From positions 127,961-191,960 of the forward strand of contig QZIT01000005.1 of assembly GCA_003599145.1 (NCBI GenBank): 64,000 nt of DNA, read 5' to 3'. The notes under the pieces are model-generated. The model searched no databases. It was not told the origin of the DNA and saw nothing but the letters and a program-made list of their open reading frames with translations. This document shows, piece by piece, positions 15,216 to 58,665 of this stretch; position 1 is the first letter of the stretch; the number at the start of each line of letters is the position of its first letter. The position numbers and the translations under genes were made by a program. The DNA comes from Candidatus Woesearchaeota archaeon (GTDB taxonomy: Archaea > Nanobdellota > Nanobdellia > Woesearchaeales > UBA9642).

Positions 15216-15848
15216 ATGGGAAAGTTAGAAACATTGAATACGGGAACAACAACCCTGGGTATTGTCTGTAAAGACGCTATTTTATTTGCAGCAGACAGAA
15301 GGGCAACAGCAGGGAATTTTATTGCCAACAAAAATATTTCTAAAATCATGCAGATTAACGAGCATATGGCATTGACTGTTGCAGGAACCGTAAGCGATGT
15401 ACAGTTAATGGTTAAATACCTTAAAGCTGAATTAAAATTAAAAAGTGTCAGAACAGGCAGAAATAATACCGTAAAAGAAGCTGCAAATTTGCTTGCTGGC
15501 ATGGTCTATAATAACATCAGAAAATTCTCAGCAATACCAGGAATCAGCCACTTTTTATTTGGCGGCTATGATAATACCGGCTGCCAGTTGTATGAAATTT
15601 ATCCTGACGGCTCAATAACGAAAATAGAAGACTTCGTGAGCAGCGGAAGCGGAAGTGTCATGGTGTATGGAGTTTTGGAAACATCATATAAGCCAGACAT
15701 GAACGGAAAGGAAGCCGAGGAACTAGCCCTGAGGAGCATGAAAGGCGCATTGTTAAGAGACAGCGCTTCAGGAAACGGCGTTGACATTATCACGATAAGC
15801 AAAGCAGGCGTTAAGCAAACGTATGAAAAAACTATTCCAGGATTTTAG
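15216..15848 (+). CDS. psmB: proteasome subunit beta
   Basis: Propeptide followed by TTTLGIVCKDAILFAADRRAT (Thr1 active site region). Confidence 0.95.
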   Translation: MGKLETLNTGTTTLGIVCKDAILFAADRRATAGNFIANKNISKIMQINEHMALTVAGTVSDVQLMVKYLKAELKLKSVRTGRNNTVKEAANLLAGMVYNNIRKFSAIPGISHFLFGGYDNTGCQLYEIYPDGSITKIEDFVSSGSGSVMVYGVLETSYKPDMNGKEAEELALRSMKGALLRDSASGNGVDIITISKAGVKQTYEKTIPGF

Positions 15849-30046: not shown

Positions 30047-30376
30047 TTATGCTTTAGTGAAGATAGTACAGAGTGCGCCTTCTACTTTTTTTATTGTTTT
30101 TTCCTTTATATGCCCTATTTTATAGGAAATAATAGCTGTATCCGCTGTGAACAATCTTGCAGGTTTAATAAAACTATCAAGAGGAAGTTTTCCGTGTTGA
30201 AAATCAGTTTGCTTTAAAGCAATAAGGCCTTCATCCTCTTGACTGGTAATAAGCGAAAGAATAACATCATTTCCCTGCAGGACTGCAACAACTAGGCTTG
30301 GCCTTTTTTTAGTCGCTGTCAAGTCTGAAAATGGAAAAGGCAAAACAACAACGTCTCCTTTCATAAGTCTTTCCAT
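30047..30376 (-). CDS. PemK/MazF-like toxin
   Basis: GDVVVLPFPFSDLTATKKRPSLVVAV typical MazF/PemK N-terminus. Confidence 0.7.
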   Translation of the reverse strand: MERLMKGDVVVLPFPFSDLTATKKRPSLVVAVLQGNDVILSLITSQEDEGLIALKQTDFQHGKLPLDSFIKPARLFTADTAIISYKIGHIKEKTIKKVEGALCTIFTKA

Positions 30377-30612
30377 GCTTCATCTTCCTTTTTTGTATTC
30401 CAATCCTTAGCAAGTACTTTTTCGCTTGCAAGTGCAGTTTCCAATGATTCACTTATCTGTTTCATGGGCCTAAGTTCAATGTGGTCATGAAAAACCAAAA
30501 TGCTTACTTTTGAACCGTTTTTGAATCCCTGAGGCCTAAAGGAAGAGGGTATGCAAATTTGACCTTTTTCTGTCAGCGTTGCAGTCTTTATTTCCAGAAG
30601 TTCTTTTTTCAT
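30361..30612 (-). CDS. AbrB/MazE-type antitoxin
   Basis: KGQICIPSSFR swapped-hairpin (SpoVT/AbrB) motif; 16-nt overlap with the downstream toxin gene. Confidence 0.65.
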   Translation of the reverse strand: MKKELLEIKTATLTEKGQICIPSSFRPQGFKNGSKVSILVFHDHIELRPMKQISESLETALASEKVLAKDWNTKKEDEAWKDL

Positions 30613-42744: not shown

Positions 42745-43194
42745 TTATCGCACAGTGGTAAGCAAAGCTCCCTGTGCAACATGGCTTGCTGTTCCGCCAA
42801 CCCGGGTATAGTTAATAAGAATATTTACAGTGCTTTTTGAGCTTTGAGTAAACGCAGGACTTGCAAAGGTGCAGGTAAAATTCGCATTTTGGCTTATGAA
42901 AATAACTTGAGGAGCATTGCAATTCACGGTAAAAATGCCTGTGTCATCATTCGAAACGCGTATAGAGTTCACCGTAATATCCCGCTCAAAGCCGTTTCTC
43001 AGCTGCAGCTTTACCTGAGTTTGATTTAAAGAGTATTCAGTACAGGGCAATTCTGGAATAGTGTCACAGTAATCTTTTTGCAGGGTATTGACATCTAAAA
43101 ATCCAAAGTAGACAATGGCGCCAATGGCAGTTATTACTACCAGCAATGCCCAGCCATAGGTTGTCATAAATTCCAAAGATGCCTGTGCTTTCAT
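42745..43194 (-). CDS. archaeal type IV pilin-like protein (class III signal peptide)
   Basis: MKAQASLEFMTTYGWALLVVITAIGAIVYFG: K-A|Q cleavage context, Glu at +5, hydrophobic helix. Confidence 0.7.
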   Translation of the reverse strand: MKAQASLEFMTTYGWALLVVITAIGAIVYFGFLDVNTLQKDYCDTIPELPCTEYSLNQTQVKLQLRNGFERDITVNSIRVSNDDTGIFTVNCNAPQVIFISQNANFTCTFASPAFTQSSKSTVNILINYTRVGGTASHVAQGALLTTVR

Positions 43195-43260: not shown

Positions 43261-43788
43261 TTATGGAACGTTGATATACACTTCCCCTTTTTGCTGTTTA
43301 GGATAGTTCACGTCAGTGTAATAGTTGATGGTGAACTCGAATTTTGTTTTTCGTCCAGCTTCAAGAAACGATCCAGTTGTACAGTCAATTTCCACTTCTG
43401 TTTCTGCGTTAATAGCAAACGTTGCAGTACCTGCTCCTGCCAAATTCGTAGCTCCAAAGAAGGTAGTACATGTTCCCAATCCACCTGCGCCTGTTGGAGG
43501 ATCATTAATGACAACATCGTCAATAGTTACCTGTTTTCCCAGCTTGTTTTTAAGCAAAAATTTCACATTATAGCTTCCGCCATCTGCAGGTGCTACTATA
43601 TTAACACTCGTAGCAAGCATCTTGTCCTTATCGCACAAGAATTCAATACCGAAATTGCATCGTTCAGAAACAAATGCATCGGGCCTTAATACTCCAAAAT
43701 ATGCCAATGCTCCAATCATGACCAGAATAACTAAAAACGCCCAACCATAGGTTGTCAAAAATTCCAAAGCTGCCTGCGCTCTTTTCAT
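43261..43788 (-). CDS. archaeal type IV pilin-like protein (class III signal peptide)
   Basis: MKRAQAALEFLTTYGWAFLVILVMIGALAYFG (start re-set from the track's 43923 to this Met); paralog of the adjacent pilin. Confidence 0.7.
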   Translation of the reverse strand: MKRAQAALEFLTTYGWAFLVILVMIGALAYFGVLRPDAFVSERCNFGIEFLCDKDKMLATSVNIVAPADGGSYNVKFLLKNKLGKQVTIDDVVINDPPTGAGGLGTCTTFFGATNLAGAGTATFAINAETEVEIDCTTGSFLEAGRKTKFEFTINYYTDVNYPKQQKGEVYINVP

Positions 43789-43926
43789 TACAACACCTCT
43801 TTTAAAATAATACAGTGATTTCTGAATATCTGTATATATAAAGTTTTTGCTTTTGGAAAAGTTTTTATAATAAAGAACGAAACTCAATTTATGACATTTC
43901 CGCAATTCAAGAACAAACACCAATTC

Positions 43927-45092: not shown

Positions 45093-46871
45093 ATGAGATA
45101 TACCTCTACAGTGAAAGCTGCAACTATCGCATTCATGCTTCTTTTATTCATTCCAGGAGTGCTTGCAAACATGTTTGATGACATGTTACGGCCATTTCAG
45201 GGAGTTGATTTTGGAGCAACCTATCAAACCTATGCGCCTTTTATTGATGGATTGCTGTTCTTTTTCATTTTCTATGGATTATCGAAATTTGTTTTCCATA
45301 AAAAATTTGGCGCTCAAGCAAACATGATCGGGATAGGCATTTCTCTTGCACTGGCATTTTCAGCAGCAGTGTTTGAATTGCGCACTGGCTTCAGAATGGG
45401 AGATTTAGGACCTATTGCTATTTTGCTGTTTTTTGGATTTATTTTTTATACGGTATACACCTTAACAAAAGGCTTAGGCAGCGGAAAGTGGATAGCTTTT
45501 GGCGTTACCTTTCTGTTATTATTTGGCATACTGCAAAACATTTTAGGAAGCTTTTTCCAGCAGAATGGGTGGATTCAAGCGTTAATGGGCATCATGCTCA
45601 TTGCAAGCGTTATAGGAATTATTGTTGGATTAGTTGGATTATTCAAAGGAAAAGGCAGTTCATCAAACAATGTAAATACAGAAGTAAGGCAGGAAAGAGA
45701 ACAGATAAGGAATGCAGATAAAGAACAGAAAAGACAGGTGCAGCAGTTTATGCAAGATGAAAATAAACTACAGCAATTAAACCAGCACCTTGCAAATTTA
45801 GAAGCAGCAGATACGCAATTAGCCCAGCAAATACAGGTAGATACCAGCGATGAATATAGAGAATATGAAGATATAAGAAAAATAGTGCGAGATATGGGCT
45901 GGATGCTGCAAAATCACGTTTTGCCTGCCTATAAATATGCTGAACAAAAACAAAGAGAACTGCAAAAAGGCAATATTCTTGACCCAAATCAAATGCAGCA
46001 GTATCAAACAGGCATTCAAAATGCATTTACCTACATTAGAAATATCCTTACGAGAATCAACCAATCTTTGGGAACCTACAACGCACGATTGATACAACTG
46101 CAGGAATCTCTTTATAAAAAAGACAAGGAAGTTGAACAGCGCAGAATTGCCTTTAGAGAAGAGCAGAGAGATGAATTAGGACAGATGGGTGTTGATGTCC
46201 AATTAACCGAATTAGGAAAAGATGCCCAGAAGTTGTTTAAAGAATATATGAATATTAAGAACAAGATTAAAAAAATTGCAGGAATTTTAGCAGTAGTCCT
46301 GAGAAGCAAAAAGTACGGGCCAGAAGATGATGCATCTGCATTCAGAAAAGCAGAACAATATTCTATTGATGCCAACAGATTAATACAAACCATCAATGCA
46401 GAACAGCAGAATGTCATTGAAGGAGAAAGAAGCATTAAAAAAGATGTTGACATGATGTGGAAATTGATGAATGCAGAAGGTGAAAATGTAAGGCAGCAGG
46501 AAGCACTTTTAAAATCTGCATTTGATGTTTCGCAGGATTTAGCAGCTGCATTAAACCAGCCTATTAGCCAGAAAATGGTTGACCAAGTGAAAAATAAACT
46601 GATGGAACTGTACCAAAAAACAGAAATTGCAGGAACAAAATTAATGGAAGAAGTAGACATCGTAAAAAGAGTGCAGGAAATCAAGCAGGATAAGGAAAGC
46701 ATGGAGCAAAGAATTAAAATTCTTGAAGACAAATACAAGAATTATCTCGCAAGATTGTTTAAAGACTTTGAAAGATATGAAGATATTCTTAAGGGTGTCC
46801 AGAATGCTGCAGGTGCAAACGCTCAACAGGTACAACAAAACAACATGATAGGCCAACCGCCTGTTTCTTAA
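45093..46871 (+). CDS. membrane-anchor module (about 190 aa, 4-5 TM) + about 400-aa coiled-coil domain
   Basis: N-terminal module homologous to that of 47724..48851 (shared FIDG-containing block); rest Q/E/K-rich heptads. Confidence 0.6.
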   Translation: MRYTSTVKAATIAFMLLLFIPGVLANMFDDMLRPFQGVDFGATYQTYAPFIDGLLFFFIFYGLSKFVFHKKFGAQANMIGIGISLALAFSAAVFELRTGFRMGDLGPIAILLFFGFIFYTVYTLTKGLGSGKWIAFGVTFLLLFGILQNILGSFFQQNGWIQALMGIMLIASVIGIIVGLVGLFKGKGSSSNNVNTEVRQEREQIRNADKEQKRQVQQFMQDENKLQQLNQHLANLEAADTQLAQQIQVDTSDEYREYEDIRKIVRDMGWMLQNHVLPAYKYAEQKQRELQKGNILDPNQMQQYQTGIQNAFTYIRNILTRINQSLGTYNARLIQLQESLYKKDKEVEQRRIAFREEQRDELGQMGVDVQLTELGKDAQKLFKEYMNIKNKIKKIAGILAVVLRSKKYGPEDDASAFRKAEQYSIDANRLIQTINAEQQNVIEGERSIKKDVDMMWKLMNAEGENVRQQEALLKSAFDVSQDLAAALNQPISQKMVDQVKNKLMELYQKTEIAGTKLMEEVDIVKRVQEIKQDKESMEQRIKILEDKYKNYLARLFKDFERYEDILKGVQNAAGANAQQVQQNNMIGQPPVS

Positions 46872-47723: not shown

Positions 47724-48851
47724 ATGAAGAAGATATCAGTATATTTAGCAGTACTGCTCCTTTTTTCGTCTTTAGCATTGGCGTTTGACCCTTTAACAAC
47801 CATTATAGATCCTTTTAGGGAAATAGATTTTGCATCGTTCTATTTAGGAGCGTATTATTTCATTGACGGCATTATCTACTTGATGATTTTTTTAGGGTTG
47901 GGAATGTTTGTTTTCAAGAAATATTACCAGCAAAATGCCAAGCCTATTGTCATAGGTGTTGGTTTAGCTTTAACTTTCGCAGCGACATATTTTGAATACC
48001 TAACAGGATTTAATTTAGGCCAATTGTATCCTATAGCTGCCATCATCATCTTATTTATCATGATTTTCTTGATTTATGAATTCATGCATTCGTTCATCAA
48101 TGACGTTGGAGCATCTGCTTCCATCGCAATGCTTTTGGGAGCAGCAATGCTGATGAGCATCTTCACAGGCATTTATGATTGGTTAGTCCAGAATTCTCCT
48201 TTAGGCGCTGCGTTAGTGCATTTGGCAGTTGTCTTTGCGTTTGTTTTATTGATTATCAGGTTATTCAGATTATTTGGAAATGGACAGAATGCTGGAACAC
48301 CTGGACAACAAGGACCTGCAGGTCCCCAAGGACCACCTGGAAATCAAGGAATACCAGGACAAGGAGGCGGACCAGGAATGCCTGGACAGCCAGGACCTAT
48401 TGGACCGCCAGGGCAAGGAGGAGGAAACCCGCCAAATCCACCAGGACAACCATTAACAGTGCAAATTGCAGTGCCTGGAAGAAACGGACAGCAATTCCAG
48501 CAAGGGCAATTGCCTCATCTTGAAGCAGTTATTCGAGGAGGAACATCTCCTTATTATTTTAGATGGACAATCAATGGTCAGCAGGCAGGACAAGGGCAAA
48601 CTAACGGACATGCACGCACTCAAATCAATCCATTGCCCCCTGGAAGATATCACGCGATTATTGAAGTGACTGATACAGCAAACCATATTGCTGCAGACCA
48701 AAGAGATTTTGTTATTACAGGAGGTAATCCTTTGCAAGTACAAGTGCAACCTATCACACATCCCGTAGCACCAAACGGAAACGTTACGGTTAACCTTAAT
48801 ATTCAAGGAGGACAGCCTCCTTATACTATACAACCAATCATCAATCCATAA
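47724..48851 (+). CDS. membrane-anchor module + collagen-like Gly-X-Y repeats + Ig-like (GxPPY) repeats; probably the N-terminal part of a split gene
   Basis: 17 uninterrupted G-X-Y triplets ([57 protein letters not shown]); [10 protein letters not shown] and [10 protein letters not shown] Ig-like repeat motifs. Confidence 0.6.
48282..48451 (+). repeat. collagen-like G-X-Y coding repeat (DNA level)
   Basis: gga/ggc-cca/cct triplet periodicity across about 170 nt. Confidence 0.6.
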
Positions 48852-48852
48852 C

Positions 48853-51657
48853 ATGGCATACAAAATAAAAGACGACGGAAAACTTCCCAAAGAGGGAAAC
48901 GCAGAGGTAGATATTAATTTAAGTAAATTTAACAATATCCGTGCGGATAAACCAAATGCTTTGGTATTTAGAGTTACTGACAGCGCAGGGAATGTTGCCG
49001 TAAGCGATCCTGTTTATTTTACTATTAGACAGCAGTTTTCTGTAAAAATAGTCCATCCAAAAGGAGAATATCCTGAAGGAGAGCTTGTTCCTTTAAGAGC
49101 AGAGATAAATCAGGGAATGTCTCCGTATACTTATGAATTCTTTATTGATGGAAATGCTTTAGGACCAAGAAGACAGACTAATGATGCAATCATTCAAAGT
49201 CAACTGCCTCCTCAATTATTTGCTCCAAATAACTTAGGACCTGGAAAACATGAACTGACCATAACCGTTGAAGACCATCAGGGAGCAAAAACAGCAGACA
49301 GAGCAGAATTTGAAATAAAAACAGGAACGGCAATGGACTTTGATATTATTTCTCCGACTAAAAAAGAGTGGAATGAAGGCGAAGAAATTCCCTTTGCAAT
49401 TCAGATTAAAAATGGAAAGGAACCGTATGCAATATTTGCCTATGTCAATAGCGAGACAAGAACTAGTGAGAACGCCATTTTTGCCAAAATTGATATTCAA
49501 GGGCTTACGGACAATACATTCGCTTTAGAGCATGCGTATGCAAAAATCCTTGACATGCTGAAGAGAGGAGTTCTTAAAAGAGGAAAGGAATTTGTCGTTT
49601 ACATCGAAGTGAATGACGGCGTCAATAGCCAAGAAAATAAAGCAAGATTCCAGAGAATAAAGCCTATTACCTTAACGATTGCTCCTTCTGGCAAACTCAT
49701 GATTAATGTAGTGGCTCCTGCAGAAAATCAGCTCATACCTCAAAACGAACCTATATCTTTTGACTTCACCATTGTCAATGGACAGCCTCCTTATCAATAT
49801 GTTATCAGGGCAAGAAACCAAAGAAGAAGCATTGACTTCAGCAAAGAAGGAGAAAACATAACAAATCCTCATTTCGATTTCGCCATAGCGCACAGCTTTC
49901 CTGAAGGTGATGAACGATTGACTATTGCCGTCATTGACAGCTTAAAAAGAACTGTGCAGGTTGACCGAAACATCAAGATTGTTTCTCCTGTTGATATTCT
50001 TACCGTGAATATTGCGTCTCCAACAGAGGAACAGGTAGTGCAAAAAGAATTGCCTGTTGACCTAGAATTCACTGTTCTAGAGGGCAAAGAACCGTATACC
50101 TGCGAACTTTTGATTGTTGGTGAGGGCAGAAGAGAAGTGTATAAGAAAAGCTGGAAAGCAAACAATGCTCTAGTCCACGAGCAAGTATTATTGACAACCT
50201 ATGAAGGAAAAGCAGAAATTCTTTTAAGAATTACCGATGCAAATCAGAGAAAAGGCATTGCGCGCAGAAAGTTTGTTGTTTTCAGCATGTATAAGCCAAC
50301 ACCACCCTTATTGCCTCCTCCTCCAGGAACAGACGATACTATTCCCCAGGACCCTGATCAAAAAAGTCCTTTCAGAATTACCGATGTAAAAAGCGGAGCA
50401 GCAATACAAAAGCTGCTCAAAGACTATCAGGCAACAGAAGAACGATTGCGAAAACATAGAGCATATCTAGATTCATTCAGCAGCGACGAAGAACTCATGC
50501 AAGACCCTGCGCTGCAGGTTTATTTGAAAAGAATAATCGAAGCAGAGCAAAGAGTGCAGCAGGGTTATGAACTCATAAGGGGAAAAAGATATGCTGAAGC
50601 AGAAAATCAGCTTAAAATCATCCAAAGAATACTTGGTTTTCTTGACGACAGTTTAGAAAAAGTAAAGAGCATCGTGAAAGCGTTCAGAGAAACCAAAGGA
50701 CCGGAAGAGTTAGTCAGGGCATTGCAGCAGATTGAAGAAAAATTGAATTATCATCAAAAATTAGTAACAGAAGTTGAAACGCACGAAGACATAAAAAAGA
50801 GCCATGTAGTCATACAATACGCACTAAATTTAAGGGATGCATTTACCAAATTAAGAGAGTGCAAAGAACTGGTGCGAGGCAAGAATTACCAGTATGCCCA
50901 AAGAAGGTTCAGGCTTTTACTGCATCGCGTTCAATATCTCGACAGGGCTGAGCAAAAAATAAGAGTAATACTGCAGGCCAAGCTGACACAACAAATTGAA
51001 GAACTGACAAATGTAAAGCTCACTCAAAGAGATCTATCAAAAGCAGTGAATAAAATCATACAACAACTTACGTTTTATGGGACGCTTTTCTCTGAATTGA
51101 CCAGAGAGCATCCTGAAGTAACAAGCAATGAGCTTTATGCAAGTTTAAGAACAAACATCGACCAAGGATTGAGATTGGCACAGGAAACAAGAGAACTTAT
51201 TGCACAAAATAATTTTGAAAAAGCAAAAGACAACATAGGACAATTCAGGGGAAGACTCCAGTATATTCAAGAACTGTATGACCGGATTCTCAATGGCATT
51301 GCCTTACCAGAAGCATGGAACGGGAATGTTGCAGATTTAGAGGAAGAATTAAGAATTAATTGGCAAGGCTTGGGATCAGTAAAAAGATTAATCACTGATT
51401 TACGCAATAAATACAGAGACATTGATAGCAATCCTTCATTTAAAACGTTCACCAGATTATTTGATGACGAAGCAGAGCCAAAAGTAAGAAGAGCGAGAGA
51501 TTTACTTGCTGAAAAAAGATATGCTGAAGTACGAAAATACCTCGATGACTTGGTTCCTCTCTTTGACCAGCTGAATACATTCTATGAGATGTTCATGAAG
51601 CAGATTAATCCTCGACATACACCGAGCAACAGGCCTCCGTTCGTCAAGAAAAAATAA
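48853..51657 (+). CDS. large protein: 5 or more Ig-like (SPYTY/EPYA/PPYQY) repeats + about 450-aa alpha-helical C-terminal region; no signal peptide of its own
   Basis: Starts 1 nt after the stop of the collagen-like ORF in the +1 frame; shares the GxPPY-type repeat with it. Confidence 0.55.
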   Translation: MAYKIKDDGKLPKEGNAEVDINLSKFNNIRADKPNALVFRVTDSAGNVAVSDPVYFTIRQQFSVKIVHPKGEYPEGELVPLRAEINQGMSPYTYEFFIDGNALGPRRQTNDAIIQSQLPPQLFAPNNLGPGKHELTITVEDHQGAKTADRAEFEIKTGTAMDFDIISPTKKEWNEGEEIPFAIQIKNGKEPYAIFAYVNSETRTSENAIFAKIDIQGLTDNTFALEHAYAKILDMLKRGVLKRGKEFVVYIEVNDGVNSQENKARFQRIKPITLTIAPSGKLMINVVAPAENQLIPQNEPISFDFTIVNGQPPYQYVIRARNQRRSIDFSKEGENITNPHFDFAIAHSFPEGDERLTIAVIDSLKRTVQVDRNIKIVSPVDILTVNIASPTEEQVVQKELPVDLEFTVLEGKEPYTCELLIVGEGRREVYKKSWKANNALVHEQVLLTTYEGKAEILLRITDANQRKGIARRKFVVFSMYKPTPPLLPPPPGTDDTIPQDPDQKSPFRITDVKSGAAIQKLLKDYQATEERLRKHRAYLDSFSSDEELMQDPALQVYLKRIIEAEQRVQQGYELIRGKRYAEAENQLKIIQRILGFLDDSLEKVKSIVKAFRETKGPEELVRALQQIEEKLNYHQKLVTEVETHEDIKKSHVVIQYALNLRDAFTKLRECKELVRGKNYQYAQRRFRLLLHRVQYLDRAEQKIRVILQAKLTQQIEELTNVKLTQRDLSKAVNKIIQQLTFYGTLFSELTREHPEVTSNELYASLRTNIDQGLRLAQETRELIAQNNFEKAKDNIGQFRGRLQYIQELYDRILNGIALPEAWNGNVADLEEELRINWQGLGSVKRLITDLRNKYRDIDSNPSFKTFTRLFDDEAEPKVRRARDLLAEKRYAEVRKYLDDLVPLFDQLNTFYEMFMKQINPRHTPSNRPPFVKKK

Positions 51658-51911: not shown

Positions 51912-52712
51912 CTACAAATCATCCAGAGGAGATTTAATCTTTTTCTTCTGGTCGTTGCTGATTTGCGTGTACAATTGCGTCGTCTGCAAATTGCTATGGC
52001 CTAATAATTCCTGAATCATCCTAATATCGGTTCCTTTTTCCAGCAAATGCGTAGCAAAACTGTGCCTCAAGGTATGGGGAGAAACCTTTTTTTGTATGCC
52101 TGCTTTCCGTGCAGATTTCTGGATGATTTTTTGCACGTTTCTTGGGCTGAGCGTGCCTGTTTTTCCAGGAAAAACATAATCCGTTATCTTCGATAAGTAA
52201 GGCCTTAAATCAGTAATGACCGCATCTGATAAGATAGCCATCCTGTCTTTTCCGCCTTTTCCTCGTCTTACCCAGGCAAGCTTATTGTCCATTTCTACAT
52301 CTTTCTTTTTCAATTGCAAGAGTTCAGAAACCCTCAATCCTGAAGAATACAGCAGCTTAATCATCAATTTGCTTTTTAAGGTTGGCGTAGATTCAATAAG
52401 CTGTTTTACCTCTTCTTTGCTCAAGATAGAGGGCAATTTTCGCGCTATTTTAGGAGTTTTGACATTGACAATGTTCTTTTTTAACACATCCCCGTAATAG
52501 AATTTCAAGGCAGACCTTGCCAGTGCCACCGTCGATGCATTGAGCTTTTTATCGGCAATAAGATACGCCAAATATTTCTTAATATCCTCTTCCAAAACAA
52601 CATCAGGCGTTTTTTTTGCAAAATGCAGGAACAATTGATTGTGAAACACATACGTTTTGATAGTTGTTGGACTGCAGCCTCTTAATTTTAATTCTGTTTC
52701 AAGATTTTCCAT
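51912..52712 (-). CDS. tyrosine recombinase, XerA/XerC-like (phage integrase family)
   Basis: Core-binding SPTTIKTY...; catalytic region LRHSFATHLLEKGTDIRMIQELLGHSNLQTTQLYTQI (R, HxxR, Y). Confidence 0.85.
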   Translation of the reverse strand: MENLETELKLRGCSPTTIKTYVFHNQLFLHFAKKTPDVVLEEDIKKYLAYLIADKKLNASTVALARSALKFYYGDVLKKNIVNVKTPKIARKLPSILSKEEVKQLIESTPTLKSKLMIKLLYSSGLRVSELLQLKKKDVEMDNKLAWVRRGKGGKDRMAILSDAVITDLRPYLSKITDYVFPGKTGTLSPRNVQKIIQKSARKAGIQKKVSPHTLRHSFATHLLEKGTDIRMIQELLGHSNLQTTQLYTQISNDQKKKIKSPLDDL

Positions 52713-52989: not shown

Positions 52990-53538
52990 GTGGCAATGGT
53001 TTCTTTGGTTGTCGTTGCCTTTTTTGGAGTAACCGAAGGAGCAGCAATAAGAAGAATAAGTGTTCCTTCACAGCCAGTGCAAGAAACTACAGCACCAGTT
53101 TGCTCTCTTTGCGGAGATGTCAATGGAGATAGGACTGCGTTTAATATTCAGGATAAAATGATTTTTGATAGTTATGCAAAGAATAATGGACCAGCACCTT
53201 CCTGCATGGCCCAAGCAGACTTGGACGGAGATGGCGTTGTCGGCAGTCTTGTAGACATAAGAATGTGGGAAGATGCCTATGCAGGCCGCATTACTCCTAC
53301 CTGTCAGCAAACTCCATTAACAGCAATAAACTGCCAAAAATGCGGAGATCTCAATGGAGACAGTATCGTCAATATCGTAGATGAAATGCTGATGGATGAC
53401 TTTGTTTGGAGAGGCGGAGCAGCGCCTGCATGCTTAAGCAAGGCTGATTTAAATCAGGATGGCATTATCAGCGACACTTCAGATGCGCTTTTATTGAAAA
53501 GCTATCTTTGGAAAGCAGGGCCTGAACCTGTTTGCTGA
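52990..53538 (+). CDS. secreted protein with four dockerin/EF-hand-like calcium-binding repeats (GTG start)
   Basis: GDVNGDRTAFNIQD, ADLDGDGVVGSLVD, GDLNGDSIVNIVD, ADLNQDGIISDTSD...LLKSYLWKAG; N-terminal hydrophobic segment. Confidence 0.55.
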   Translation: MAMVSLVVVAFFGVTEGAAIRRISVPSQPVQETTAPVCSLCGDVNGDRTAFNIQDKMIFDSYAKNNGPAPSCMAQADLDGDGVVGSLVDIRMWEDAYAGRITPTCQQTPLTAINCQKCGDLNGDSIVNIVDEMLMDDFVWRGGAAPACLSKADLNQDGIISDTSDALLLKSYLWKAGPEPVC

Positions 53539-53547
53539 GGTGCAACA

Positions 53548-53853
53548 ATGGAACAAAAAATGATGTACTATAGTTTAATAGCAGTAGTAGGCATGGTTGC
53601 CGTGGTCAGTTTAGTAGTCATACTTGTTGGAGCGAAGCAAAACTCATTAGCGGCAAATGCTGTCGCTCCATTAACCTATGAACAAATAGATCCTGATGGA
53701 GATGGGCCACTTCCGGTTTCCCGATGTGCCAGAGCATATGCGAGATATTATGACTCAACAACAGATGAAAACTGTGTTGACACGTACCTTATCTGCGGTG
53801 ATGTTGGCATGTTTAGGTTTTCACACGATTGTTACTCTGCAAAAGACTATTAG
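53548..53853 (+). CDS. small secreted/membrane Cys-containing protein
   Basis: TM/signal MMYYSLIAVVGMVAVVSLVVILVGA; DPDGDGP motif; 5 Cys. Confidence 0.4.
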   Translation: MEQKMMYYSLIAVVGMVAVVSLVVILVGAKQNSLAANAVAPLTYEQIDPDGDGPLPVSRCARAYARYYDSTTDENCVDTYLICGDVGMFRFSHDCYSAKDY

Positions 53854-53989: not shown

Positions 53990-54511
53990 ATGGCATTAAG
54001 CAAGTACTTACGATTTGCAGCTGCGTATGATTCTTTAGCAGATATTTGTGGAAACGAACCTCCAACAAAGCAACTGGTAATAGCCCATATGGCGAGAAGA
54101 TTTGCGGAAGAAGAATTTAAAATGCGTTCTGGAACCACTACGGATAGAAAGGCTACCGAAGAAGCATATGTAAGCGCCATGCTCCAAAGAGAAGGCCTTG
54201 TAACAACAGGCGTTGGTTATGGCGTAGCTTTGCCTCATGGAGTAGTTGAAGTGCAGAGTGGTGTTTTACAGCCCCAGCTTGATTTGGGAGTGTATATCAT
54301 TCCAGAATTAGATTGGGAATCTTCTGACAAAAAACCTGCTCAGCTCATCTTTGCCACGTTATGCCCCAGAGATATCATTGGGGGTCATTTAAACGTTCTG
54401 GCAAGGTTAAGCTACACTTTAAAAACTGAAAAAATGAGAACCTTAATAAGGGATTCGGTAATTTCAGGAAATGAACTAGAATTAAAAAAGCTTTTAGACT
54501 ATCAACCTTAG
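53990..54511 (+). CDS. PTS EIIA type-2 (PtsN/fructose-IIA-like) domain protein, standalone
   Basis: LQREGLVTTGVGYGVALPHG (compare REKMGSTGIGNGIAIPHG with phosphorylatable His) and PAQLIFATLCPRD...HLNVLARLS match the EIIA-2 fold signature. Confidence 0.65.
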   Translation: MALSKYLRFAAAYDSLADICGNEPPTKQLVIAHMARRFAEEEFKMRSGTTTDRKATEEAYVSAMLQREGLVTTGVGYGVALPHGVVEVQSGVLQPQLDLGVYIIPELDWESSDKKPAQLIFATLCPRDIIGGHLNVLARLSYTLKTEKMRTLIRDSVISGNELELKKLLDYQP

Positions 54512-54548: not shown

Positions 54549-55106
54549 ATGAAAGAAGACGATATTCACAGAGAAATCTTAAAAGAAGCCCTTGCTGAGA
54601 AAGAGGAAAAGCCATCAAAAGTATGGCCTTATATTTGGGTAGGCATAGGCTTATTGATTATTATTTTGCTTATTTTAGCCTATACAGGAGGCATCTCAGG
54701 CATTTATTTCATCAAAGGAAGAACTGCAAGCGGAGAAATTCAAAATTTTCAAGTGGATTTTGAAGAGGGCAAGGTCATTTTTGAGCCTTCTGTCTATGAA
54801 GCGTTAAAAAACCAGTTTTTGGCAAATTACACAGCGGAATTTAAAGTCTGCCTATTGGGAGAAAAGCAGGGAAAGAACTATATTATAACAAGTTTTTACA
54901 CACCAATCATTTTCTCGCAGGATTTTACCAGTGTACACAGCGTACAGTGCAACAGCTCAACCATCATTCCCTTGCACAGCCATCCTGTAGATAGTTGTTT
55001 ATTTTCAGATCAGGATAAGGCATCATTTAAAGCATTTAAAGAGGTAAATCCTGATGCGATCTATGGATTGATGTGCTCGGCAAATCGATTTTCATTCATA
55101 AAATGA
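54549..55106 (+). CDS. membrane-anchored JAB/MPN (JAMM) metalloprotease-like protein
   Basis: N-terminal TM helix; LHSHPVDSCLFSDQD fits the JAMM motif H-x-H-x7-S-x2-D. Confidence 0.55.
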   Translation: MKEDDIHREILKEALAEKEEKPSKVWPYIWVGIGLLIIILLILAYTGGISGIYFIKGRTASGEIQNFQVDFEEGKVIFEPSVYEALKNQFLANYTAEFKVCLLGEKQGKNYIITSFYTPIIFSQDFTSVHSVQCNSSTIIPLHSHPVDSCLFSDQDKASFKAFKEVNPDAIYGLMCSANRFSFIK

Positions 55107-55152: not shown

Positions 55153-55452
55153 TTAGAAATAGCCTTTCATGCCTTTGAAATATGTTTTGATTTGGACATA
55201 GCATGATTTCAACTCTTTTTTTCCTAAAGCAGTAAGGCTATAGTGCTTTTTTCTGCCGTCCTTTTTCCACGTTACTAGTTTTTGTTTTCTGAGCCTTTTG
55301 AGCGTAGGATAAATCGTTCCTGGCGTTAAAACCTCTCCTTTGCGCATGCCAATGCTTCTGGCAAGTTCATCACCGGAAAACGGTTTTTTTGACAATTCGT
55401 GCAGAATGAAAAAAGACAAAAAACCCTTGATTTCTATTTTTGCTTTAGGCAT
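55153..55452 (-). CDS. PadR-family transcriptional regulator
   Basis: GFLSFFILHELSKKPFSGDELARSIGMRKGEVLTPGTIYPTLKRLRKQKLV. Confidence 0.85.
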   Translation of the reverse strand: MPKAKIEIKGFLSFFILHELSKKPFSGDELARSIGMRKGEVLTPGTIYPTLKRLRKQKLVTWKKDGRKKHYSLTALGKKELKSCYVQIKTYFKGMKGYF

Positions 55453-57759: not shown

Positions 57760-58665
57760 CTAATAGAGATTATAGACTATGTTACTCATACAGCGTATGC
57801 CTCCTGCAAGACCTCTTTTGCCATAGTTAGGGAAATCTGAACCGCAAGTCAGAATACGCTCTTTGGGTAGATGTTTTTGCAGAAAGCTCCTGGTTTCTCT
57901 GCATACTTCAGGCAACAGCACTTTTCCGTCAGGCAAAACAAGCATATTGACTGCTAAAAGCTCATAATCAGGACTAGGCATAGGAACAATAAATGATTCT
58001 GAGTGCAAACGATAGACAAGATCAATCATAGCCTCAACGTGTTCAAAAGCATAGTCAGGATCTATCAACAATAATGGTTTTTCAGCAGGAATGAATGAAA
58101 TTGCCGTATCTATATGGCGATGGTCAAATTGCGTAGGCGTAGGCAAAACATGAATATCATAACGAGCAGAAAGAACTTGTAAAATCTTTGCATTCTGTAC
58201 TCCTTCAGAAATAAAAAGAGCGTTGCCTGCAGATATTGCCATCCCGCCTTCTCCCAAAGAAGATCTCACCGTATGCTCAGGCAGCGGAATCCCAAGAGCA
58301 TCAAAGATCTTTTTTGTAATTTTTTTTCCTCTTGGCGCAATACACAGAACATCACCATAGAACTGAAAAGTATCTCTTGGCCATCTGATTTCTGCAAGTT
58401 CAAAGCAATGATCTAAAGGTAAACGCAAAACAGAACCTGATCGCGCAGTTTCCAAAGCAGAGATATATCTCCACATTTTTCTTGAAAGGACATTTTCTTC
58501 TTCAGGTCCAAGAATTTTTACAGTATAGCCGTTTTCAGAGAGCATATCGTACGTTCTTAAGCAATCATCAAACGCATCTTTAAAAAAGCTGGGAGTTGCA
58601 TCTGGCAATTCCAACGGTGCAAAGAGCACAACGCTTTTTTTAACGACATCATCGAGCATGCTCAA
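57760..58665 (-). CDS. amidinotransferase-superfamily enzyme (agmatine/arginine deiminase or DDAH-like)
   Basis: C-terminal GLAGGIRCMSN matches the GGGxxHC(M/I)T catalytic-Cys motif of the superfamily. Confidence 0.5.
   Translation of the reverse strand: MSMLDDVVKKSVVLFAPLELPDATPSFFKDAFDDCLRTYDMLSENGYTVKILGPEEENVLSRKMWRYISALETARSGSVLRLPLDHCFELAEIRWPRDTFQFYGDVLCIAPRGKKITKKIFDALGIPLPEHTVRSSLGEGGMAISAGNALFISEGVQNAKILQVLSARYDIHVLPTPTQFDHRHIDTAISFIPAEKPLLLIDPDYAFEHVEAMIDLVYRLHSESFIVPMPSPDYELLAVNMLVLPDGKVLLPEVCRETRSFLQKHLPKERILTCGSDFPNYGKRGLAGGIRCMSNIVYNLY

Follow-up and report, generated by a model that had tools for sequence, protein, structure and literature searches.

What is a JAMM domain doing on a membrane anchor in a woesearchaeal archaeon? 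JAMM/MPN+ enzymes are textbook intracellular isopeptidases for ubiquitin as well as ubiquitin-like proteins (Ubl). The question is raised by a gene at positions 54549..55106 (+ strand) of a 64,000-nucleotide stretch of DNA from Candidatus Woesearchaeota archaeon (assembly GCA_003599145.1, contig QZIT01000005.1, positions 127,961 to 191,960; this whole stretch is called the window below). In the window's list of open reading frames (ORFs) the gene starts with ATG and encodes 185 aa, stop codon included in the coordinates. Its product is 100% identical to NCBI C4573_02795 of Candidatus Woesearchaeota archaeon, which is annotated solely as 'hypothetical protein' and comes from a contig of 576 kb. 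The gene and its parts are as follows.

54549..55106, + strand: whole gene, membrane-anchored JAMM/MPN+ protein of 185 aa (ORF list, NCBI identity, AlphaFold2 mean pLDDT 94.8)
54549..54623, + strand: N-terminal tail, residues 1-25, charged and predicted to be cytoplasmic (helix 4-16 in the model; family bias in Lys and Arg)
54624..54689, + strand: transmembrane (TM) helix, residues 26-47, predicted signal anchor in type II orientation (hydrophobicity; helix 26-47 in the model)
54693..54728, + strand: juxtamembrane helix, residues 49-60 (model helix; alignment)
54744..55103, + strand: minimal JAMM/MPN+ catalytic domain, residues 66-185
54837..54839, + strand: codon of E97, predicted general-base Glu of the JAMM motif (invariant, n=113; aligns with AfJAMM E22 in hhalign)
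54849..54851, + strand: codon of C101 (invariant; putative disulfide partner of C134)
54948..54950, + strand: codon of C134 (99% conserved; follows the Ins-1-like hairpin and precedes the HxH strand)
54972..55016, + strand: LHSHPVDSCLFSDQD, residues 142-156, with H143, H145 and D156 as predicted zinc ligands and S153 at the predicted oxyanion site (conservation; AfJAMM alignment; roles as in PMC300881)
54996..54998, + strand: codon of C150 (invariant; equivalent of AfJAMM C74 in hhalign)
55074..55076, + strand: codon of C176 (invariant; its strand comes after helix alpha2; putative equivalent of AfJAMM C95)

The JAMM motif and the MPN fold

By fold and motif the protein is a member of the JAMM/MPN+ superfamily (Pfam clan JAB; MEROPS M67). 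An original prediction, made from the DNA alone, had described a complete H-x-H-x7-S-x2-D motif, and this is indeed present as H143, H145, S153 and D156 and conserved in the family. Six-frame translation of the window yields the pattern once; since shuffled windows contain it 0.26 times on average, the motif by itself is only weakly beyond chance, and we judge it real because of the family conservation and the fold. In an alignment of 113 homologues, 22-43% identical to the query, columns E97, C101, H143, P146, C150, S153, D156 and C176 are invariant, and L102, G104, P119, C134, H145 (97%) and M175 are at least 90% conserved. E97 thus supplies the upstream catalytic Glu that the original prediction had proposed to look for. 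That the five catalytic residues stay invariant, or nearly so, at this level of identity is a signature of selection on catalysis.

The similarity to known JAMM proteins is faint in the single sequence, for which Pfam gives Prok-JAB at E 0.016 (15.5 bits; gathering cut-off 25) and RadC at E 0.066, a search of PDB sequences gives no match, and NCBIfam has neither a match nor a model covering the protein. Prok-JAB is matched weakly by 84 of the 113 relatives (best E 9.4e-6). The family profile, searched against PDB sequences, finds Sst2 (E 9e-6), followed by AMSH-LP, Rpn11, AfJAMM (E 0.015), CSN5 and RadC. Alignment of the family with AfJAMM by hhalign (88% probability, E 2.8e-6; AfJAMM residue numbering in agreement with PMC300881) places E97, H143, H145, C150, S153 and D156 on AfJAMM E22, H67, H69, C74, S77 and D80, respectively.

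The MPN fold, the other point on which the original prediction depended, was found as well. An AlphaFold2 model built with the family alignment has a mean predicted local distance difference test score (pLDDT) of 94.8 and a predicted template-modelling score of 0.80; its top Foldseek matches in the PDB are all JAMM enzymes, the closest structures being Rpn11, the desampylase PfJAMM1 and Sst2/AMSH, and a search of viral folds (BFVD) returned generic JAB proteins only. From N to C terminus the model consists of helices 4-16, 26-47 and 49-60 and an MPN core (66-185), in which hairpin 121-131 occupies the place of insertion 1 (Ins-1) of Rpn11 and AMSH, and helix 154-164 leads directly to strand 172-177, which carries C176.

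In AfJAMM, zinc is held by two His and one Asp, water is activated by a Glu, and a Ser sits at the oxyanion (PMC300881). An E/H/H/S/D set that is invariant, within a confidently predicted MPN fold, speaks for an active zinc hydrolase using this chemistry, and we infer zinc binding and hydrolase activity on this ground. AfJAMM (Archaeoglobus fulgidus AF2198; PDB 1R5X, 1OI0) and PfJAMM1 (PDB 5LD9) are likewise minimal archaeal JAMM/MPN+ domains; they are, however, soluble cytoplasmic proteins without a TM helix, whereas the woesearchaeal family has in addition an N-terminal tail (about 25 residues), a TM anchor, the juxtamembrane helix and, in C101 and C134, a second invariant Cys pair, and its similarity to AfJAMM is detectable at the profile level only.

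Membrane topology and the four cysteines

The single N-terminal TM helix that had been proposed for the protein is supported by hydrophobicity and by the model, both of which place it near residues 26-47: the highest mean Kyte-Doolittle value over 19 residues is 2.57, and the corresponding values of the 113 homologues average 2.67 with a minimum of 1.63. Across the 113 members, the 15 residues before the helix contain on average 3.4 Lys or Arg and the 15 after it 0.96; the N-terminal side is the richer in 103 members, equal in 6 and poorer in 4. By the positive-inside rule this excess places the tail in the cytoplasm and the JAMM domain outside, so that, judging from sequence, the domain is predicted to be extracytoplasmic in a type II (N-in, C-out) protein. 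An uncleaved signal anchor seems to fit better than a cleaved signal peptide, because the N-region is about 25 residues long and the hydrophobic stretch about 22. Two positions of the juxtamembrane helix region, which reads 'EGRLxS' in relatives, are semi-conserved (G57, 69%; S61, 87%). Since the catalytic domain follows this helix almost directly, the active site should sit near the membrane surface. The helix at residues 4-16 of the tail (window 54558-54596) carries an '(I/M)H(R/Q)xIL' motif found in about one third of the closest relatives and not family-wide, and might serve in docking to a cytoplasmic partner.

Exactly four Cys are present in 104 of the 113 members, and all four are essentially invariant. 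Their placement relative to the zinc site is also fixed, with nine residues from C134 to H143 in 102 of 109 members and 20 residues from D156 to C176 in 99 of 110. In the crystal structure of AfJAMM, a disulfide between C74 and C95, the latter on strand beta5 after helix alpha2, braces the zinc-site loop (PMC300881). A C150-C176 disulfide is therefore reasonable to expect, because C150 corresponds to AfJAMM C74 and C176 lies on the strand equivalent to that of C95. Judging from fold topology, C101 and C134 may form a second disulfide, by which the first core strand would be linked with the segment that follows the Ins-1-like hairpin.

Cysteine content also differs between classes of protein in the window (83 ORFs). 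After a single N-terminal hydrophobic segment it is 2.5%, versus 0.72% in proteins without a TM segment (about 3.5-fold), and seven of the eight window proteins with such a segment have an even number of Cys, a small sample. These counts suggest that the source organism may routinely use disulfides in its exported proteins. With four Cys (2.8%), the JAMM protein falls in the exported class of the window. The ORF at 52990-53538 (+) encodes a predicted exported, cysteine-rich protein with two dockerin type I/EF-hand-like repeats (Dockerin_1 E 1.1e-11) and eight Cys, and adjoins one at 53548-53853 (+) for a likewise cysteine-rich, predicted exported 101-aa protein with four Cys and no family match. 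Two tandem ORFs, 42745-43194 (-) and 43261-43923 (-), have, as judged by eye, archaeal class-III (type IV pilin-like) N-termini (…EF(M/L)TTYGWA…), four Cys each and no Pfam match.

Family distribution and genomic neighbourhood

A HMMER search of 1.84 billion cluster representatives gave 324 relatives at E<=1e-3, of which 188 reach E<=1e-10; almost all are 170-200 aa long and match across the full length. A degenerate DNA pattern (C134...HxHP...C...S..D...MC), which matched the window once, found at least 119 stretches in one-genome-per-species GTDB contigs, with one match per genome record and a full homologue encoded at every locus. Among the matches listed, the records are labelled Woesearchaeota, Nanoarchaeota, Nanoarchaeia, 'archaeon' and 'uncultured Methanosarcinales archaeon', and carriers include the complete 1.16-Mb genome GW2011_AR15 (CP010425). 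The Methanosarcinales title is borne by about 40 loci, from third-party-annotation 'binchicken' or co-assembly metagenome-assembled genomes (e.g. L003-L005, L015, L109), among them the 774-kb 'chromosome' OZ246410.1, too small for that order. These labels are probably wrong, because genome size and gene content look DPANN-like.

No source gives members of the family a name or a Pfam domain, and a word-indexed protein search returned 16 'hypothetical' proteins; in the literature, our searches met with no account of a JAMM that is membrane-anchored or extracytoplasmic, nor of any in DPANN archaea. The family fits none of the described subfamilies (Rpn11/CSN5/AMSH, archaeal desampylases, Ubl- or defence-linked JABs, RadC). 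We regard it as a lineage-specific family whose architecture is new and whose location is probably new, the enzyme class itself being known.

The original prediction had remarked on an EIIA-like regulator next to the gene. Such a neighbour does exist: the upstream ORF at 53990..54511 (+) matches Pfam PTS_EIIA_2 (E 1.3e-16) and NCBIfam fruA/PtsN-type domains, ends 37 nucleotides before the JAMM gene on the same strand, and has a His in 'ALPHG' at what we take to be the phospho-acceptor position. The pairing itself did not hold up. Neither this protein nor the PadR regulator encoded downstream on the opposite strand (55153..55452) has a homologue in the 119 related loci listed, to which the counts below also refer, and the window proteins, as far as scanned or inspected by eye, include no component of the phosphotransferase system. 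We scanned the immediate neighbours of these loci singly (95 downstream and 93 upstream, 188 together), and PTS_EIIA_2 is not among the families found in two or more of them; a functional pairing was rejected, the adjacency not being conserved.

The survey revealed no other conserved neighbour. No Pfam family occurs more than three times on either side (at most S_layer_C, 3/95, downstream and MacB/FtsX, 3/93, upstream), and orientation is random, the strand of the JAMM gene being shared by 48 of the 95 downstream and 59 of the 93 upstream neighbours. The neighbours are mostly housekeeping genes, such as those for tRNA synthetases and ribosomal proteins. The close homologue of the window protein lies on a 1-kb contig and offers no usable context. 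A search for SAMP/E1-like genes, which had been suggested as a check, came out negative: ThiF/E1, ThiS, MoaD and ubiquitin families are absent from the 64-kb window (read partly by eye), and none occurs in two or more of the 188 neighbours.

At one locus (L101:2294-5059, -) and five to seven similar ones, the JAMM gene is directly followed on its strand by a gene for an S-layer-like protein of about 920 aa (N-terminus MKA…LSDYPAPFV), with S_layer_C matches at three loci. Given the predicted surface location of the JAMM domain this neighbour is suggestive; with six to eight such loci and S_layer_C in just 3 of 95 downstream neighbours, the link is not family-wide and was not retained.

An Xer-type tyrosine recombinase (51912-52712, -; Phage_integrase E 2.7e-46, with an N-terminal SAM-like domain) is encoded 1.8 kb upstream of the JAMM gene. 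Four other loci also have a homologue no more than 8 kb from the JAMM gene, so the recombinase probably reflects weakly retained synteny rather than the edge of an island. Elsewhere in the window, four ORFs encode proteins of 592, 375, 934 and 301 aa (45093-46871, 47724-48851 and 48853-51657, all +; 57760-58665, -), which have no Pfam match at E<=1e-3 save a marginal Big_13 in the 934-aa protein. Two overlapping small ORFs, 30047-30376 (-) and 30361-30612 (-), look by eye like a MazF/PemK-type toxin and an AbrB/MazE-type antitoxin.

Proposed function and competing explanations

The original prediction had described JAMM proteins as acting on SAMP/Ubl conjugates or in Ubl systems associated with phage defence. 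The domain and the anchor stand; the Ubl and defence roles agree poorly with the predicted C-out topology and the lack of Ubl, E1 or defence genes nearby. The reading that we favour, and hold to be somewhat more probable than all the others together, is that of a type II-anchored, extracytoplasmic, lineage-specific zinc (iso)peptidase, encoded by a stand-alone gene outside Ubl/E1 or defence operons. A JAMM domain of about 120 residues, minimal but catalytically complete, would sit on the outside of the cytoplasmic membrane. Zinc would be coordinated by H143, H145 and D156, with E97 activating the water bound to it and S153 stabilizing the tetrahedral intermediate. The two disulfides would stiffen the exposed domain, C150-C176 in the manner of AfJAMM C74-C95, and C101-C134 by fastening the first core strand to the Ins-1-like segment. 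The bond cut would be an amide, peptide or isopeptide, within an extended stretch of small residues, and the substrate would lie close to the membrane or at the cell surface. The analysis establishes the gene, its family, the conserved residues, the MPN fold and the lack of conserved neighbours; topology, disulfides, zinc binding, hydrolysis and substrate class are deductions. The narrow JAB groove probably admits only an extended chain with small residues and would restrict the enzymes to Ubl tails (PMC3239186). Given this groove and a domain close to the membrane, the likeliest job would be to cut a peptide or isopeptide bond, on the outside, where a component of the envelope or near the membrane has an extended segment.

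Several observations weigh against this assignment. The topology is read solely from the positive-inside rule and cysteine statistics, and the domain shows no enrichment of N-glycosylation sequons, a possible marker of surface exposure (0.85 observed versus 0.95 expected). The four invariant Cys could form a structural metal site instead of disulfides, and AfJAMM, which bears the homologous disulfide, is a cytoplasmic protein. The Prok-JAB score of the window protein, 15.5 bits, lies under the Pfam gathering score of 25. Gene context in the window and the listed loci offers no substrate candidate, and because the gene stands alone it gives no clue to one. To our knowledge, all characterized JAMM peptidases are intracellular and act on Ubl tails, and an extracytoplasmic one is without precedent.

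Precedent thus favours the main rival, in which the C-terminal JAMM domain would be cytoplasmic and, tethered to the membrane, would remove SAMP/Ubl tags from membrane or membrane-proximal proteins, much as AMSH does at endosomal membranes. The characterized JAMM peptidases all act on Ubl C-termini (PMC3239186), and the nearest structures (Rpn11, PfJAMM1, Sst2/AMSH) are of this kind. A proteasome beta subunit is encoded in the window at 15216..15848 (by eye from the translation), and AfJAMM shows that a disulfide of the C74-C95 type is possible in a cytoplasmic JAMM. We nevertheless consider a cytoplasmic Ubl protease doubtful: the charge bias runs the opposite way in 103 of 113 members, the four invariant Cys and the exported-protein Cys pattern point outside, and Ubl, E1, ThiS or MoaD genes are missing from the window and found in no more than one of the 188 neighbours. 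A Ubl-deconjugating JAMM enzyme would be expected to have its catalytic domain in the cytoplasm, where Ubl conjugation takes place, whereas the woesearchaeal family is predicted to be C-out. The eukaryotic deubiquitinases of MEROPS M67 (Rpn11/PSMD14, CSN5, AMSH/AMSH-LP/Sst2, BRCC36) are cytosolic or nuclear, act in complexes (proteasome lid, COP9 signalosome, BRISC) or in combination with domains such as MIT, and have ubiquitin or NEDD8 isopeptides as substrates; the woesearchaeal protein, in contrast, has no partner genes and no zinc site of insertion 2, is membrane-anchored, and carries a domain predicted to be extracytoplasmic.

The RadC-like, inactive-scaffold and defence readings are each less likely. 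The JAB domain might act on a non-protein substrate, either as a RadC-like or nucleotide-directed hydrolase or as an amidase on a lipid-linked or glycan substrate at the membrane. Weak RadC-like JAB matches in 30 of 113 members and an active site near the membrane surface are consistent with this, and Iyer et al. argued for nucleotide binding by the ancestral JAB/deaminase-like fold and for a nucleotide-related role of some archaeal JABs (PMC3239186). RadC, however, comes with a helix-hairpin-helix domain at the N terminus or a DNA-repair context and is mostly bacterial (PMC3239186); neither that domain nor that context is found for the woesearchaeal protein in comparison with the RadC-like JAB family (Pfam PF04002), and we regard a non-protein substrate as improbable.

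A membrane-anchored binding module with an inactive MPN domain (MPN-minus, as in Rpn8 or CSN6) is very improbable, given five catalytic residues that are invariant or nearly so over such sequence divergence. Ubl- and defence-associated JABs, namely HvJAMM1-type desampylases, CBASS Cap3, BilC, BubCD and the ThiS/MoaD-linked JABs (Iyer et al. 2006), take their definition from sharing an operon with Ubl, E1, E2 or CD-NTase genes (PMC1779556), whereas the woesearchaeal family has no conserved neighbour and carries a TM anchor. Membership of an antiviral Ubl-type system (CBASS Cap3-like, Bil or Bub-like) or of a mobile island beside the integrase at 51912..52712 is accordingly rejected as highly implausible and largely refuted by the neighbourhood survey, since no CD-NTase, E1, E2 or Ubl genes lie nearby here or in the other loci, the partial JAB match of PADLOC (residues 66-120, E 0.002) is not significant for a system call, and one match per genome record amid housekeeping genes does not resemble an island.

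If the extracytoplasmic zinc (iso)peptidase is taken a step further, the protein might be the first JAMM/MPN+ enzyme to work outside the cytoplasm, a surface isopeptidase of Woesearchaeota-type DPANN archaea. It could edit isopeptide-linked or Gly-Gly-type conjugates on the cell's own envelope, or, while the archaeon attaches as an episymbiont, cut isopeptide cross-links between stem peptides of pseudomurein or peptidoglycan in the envelope of a host. We offer this extension tentatively and think it rather unlikely; editing of the own envelope would imply an extracellular tagging or cross-linking chemistry not known so far. An outside location would, we expect, surprise specialists, and the small ectodomain (about 120 residues), together with obvious catalytic and cysteine mutants, makes the idea directly testable. 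Should the topology prediction be wrong, the family would still represent an undescribed membrane-tethered JAMM clade. If it is right, an outside-facing conserved family with the full catalytic set would widen the working range known for the JAMM fold and would point to a cell-surface substrate in DPANN archaea, whose surface biology and interaction with their hosts are poorly understood.
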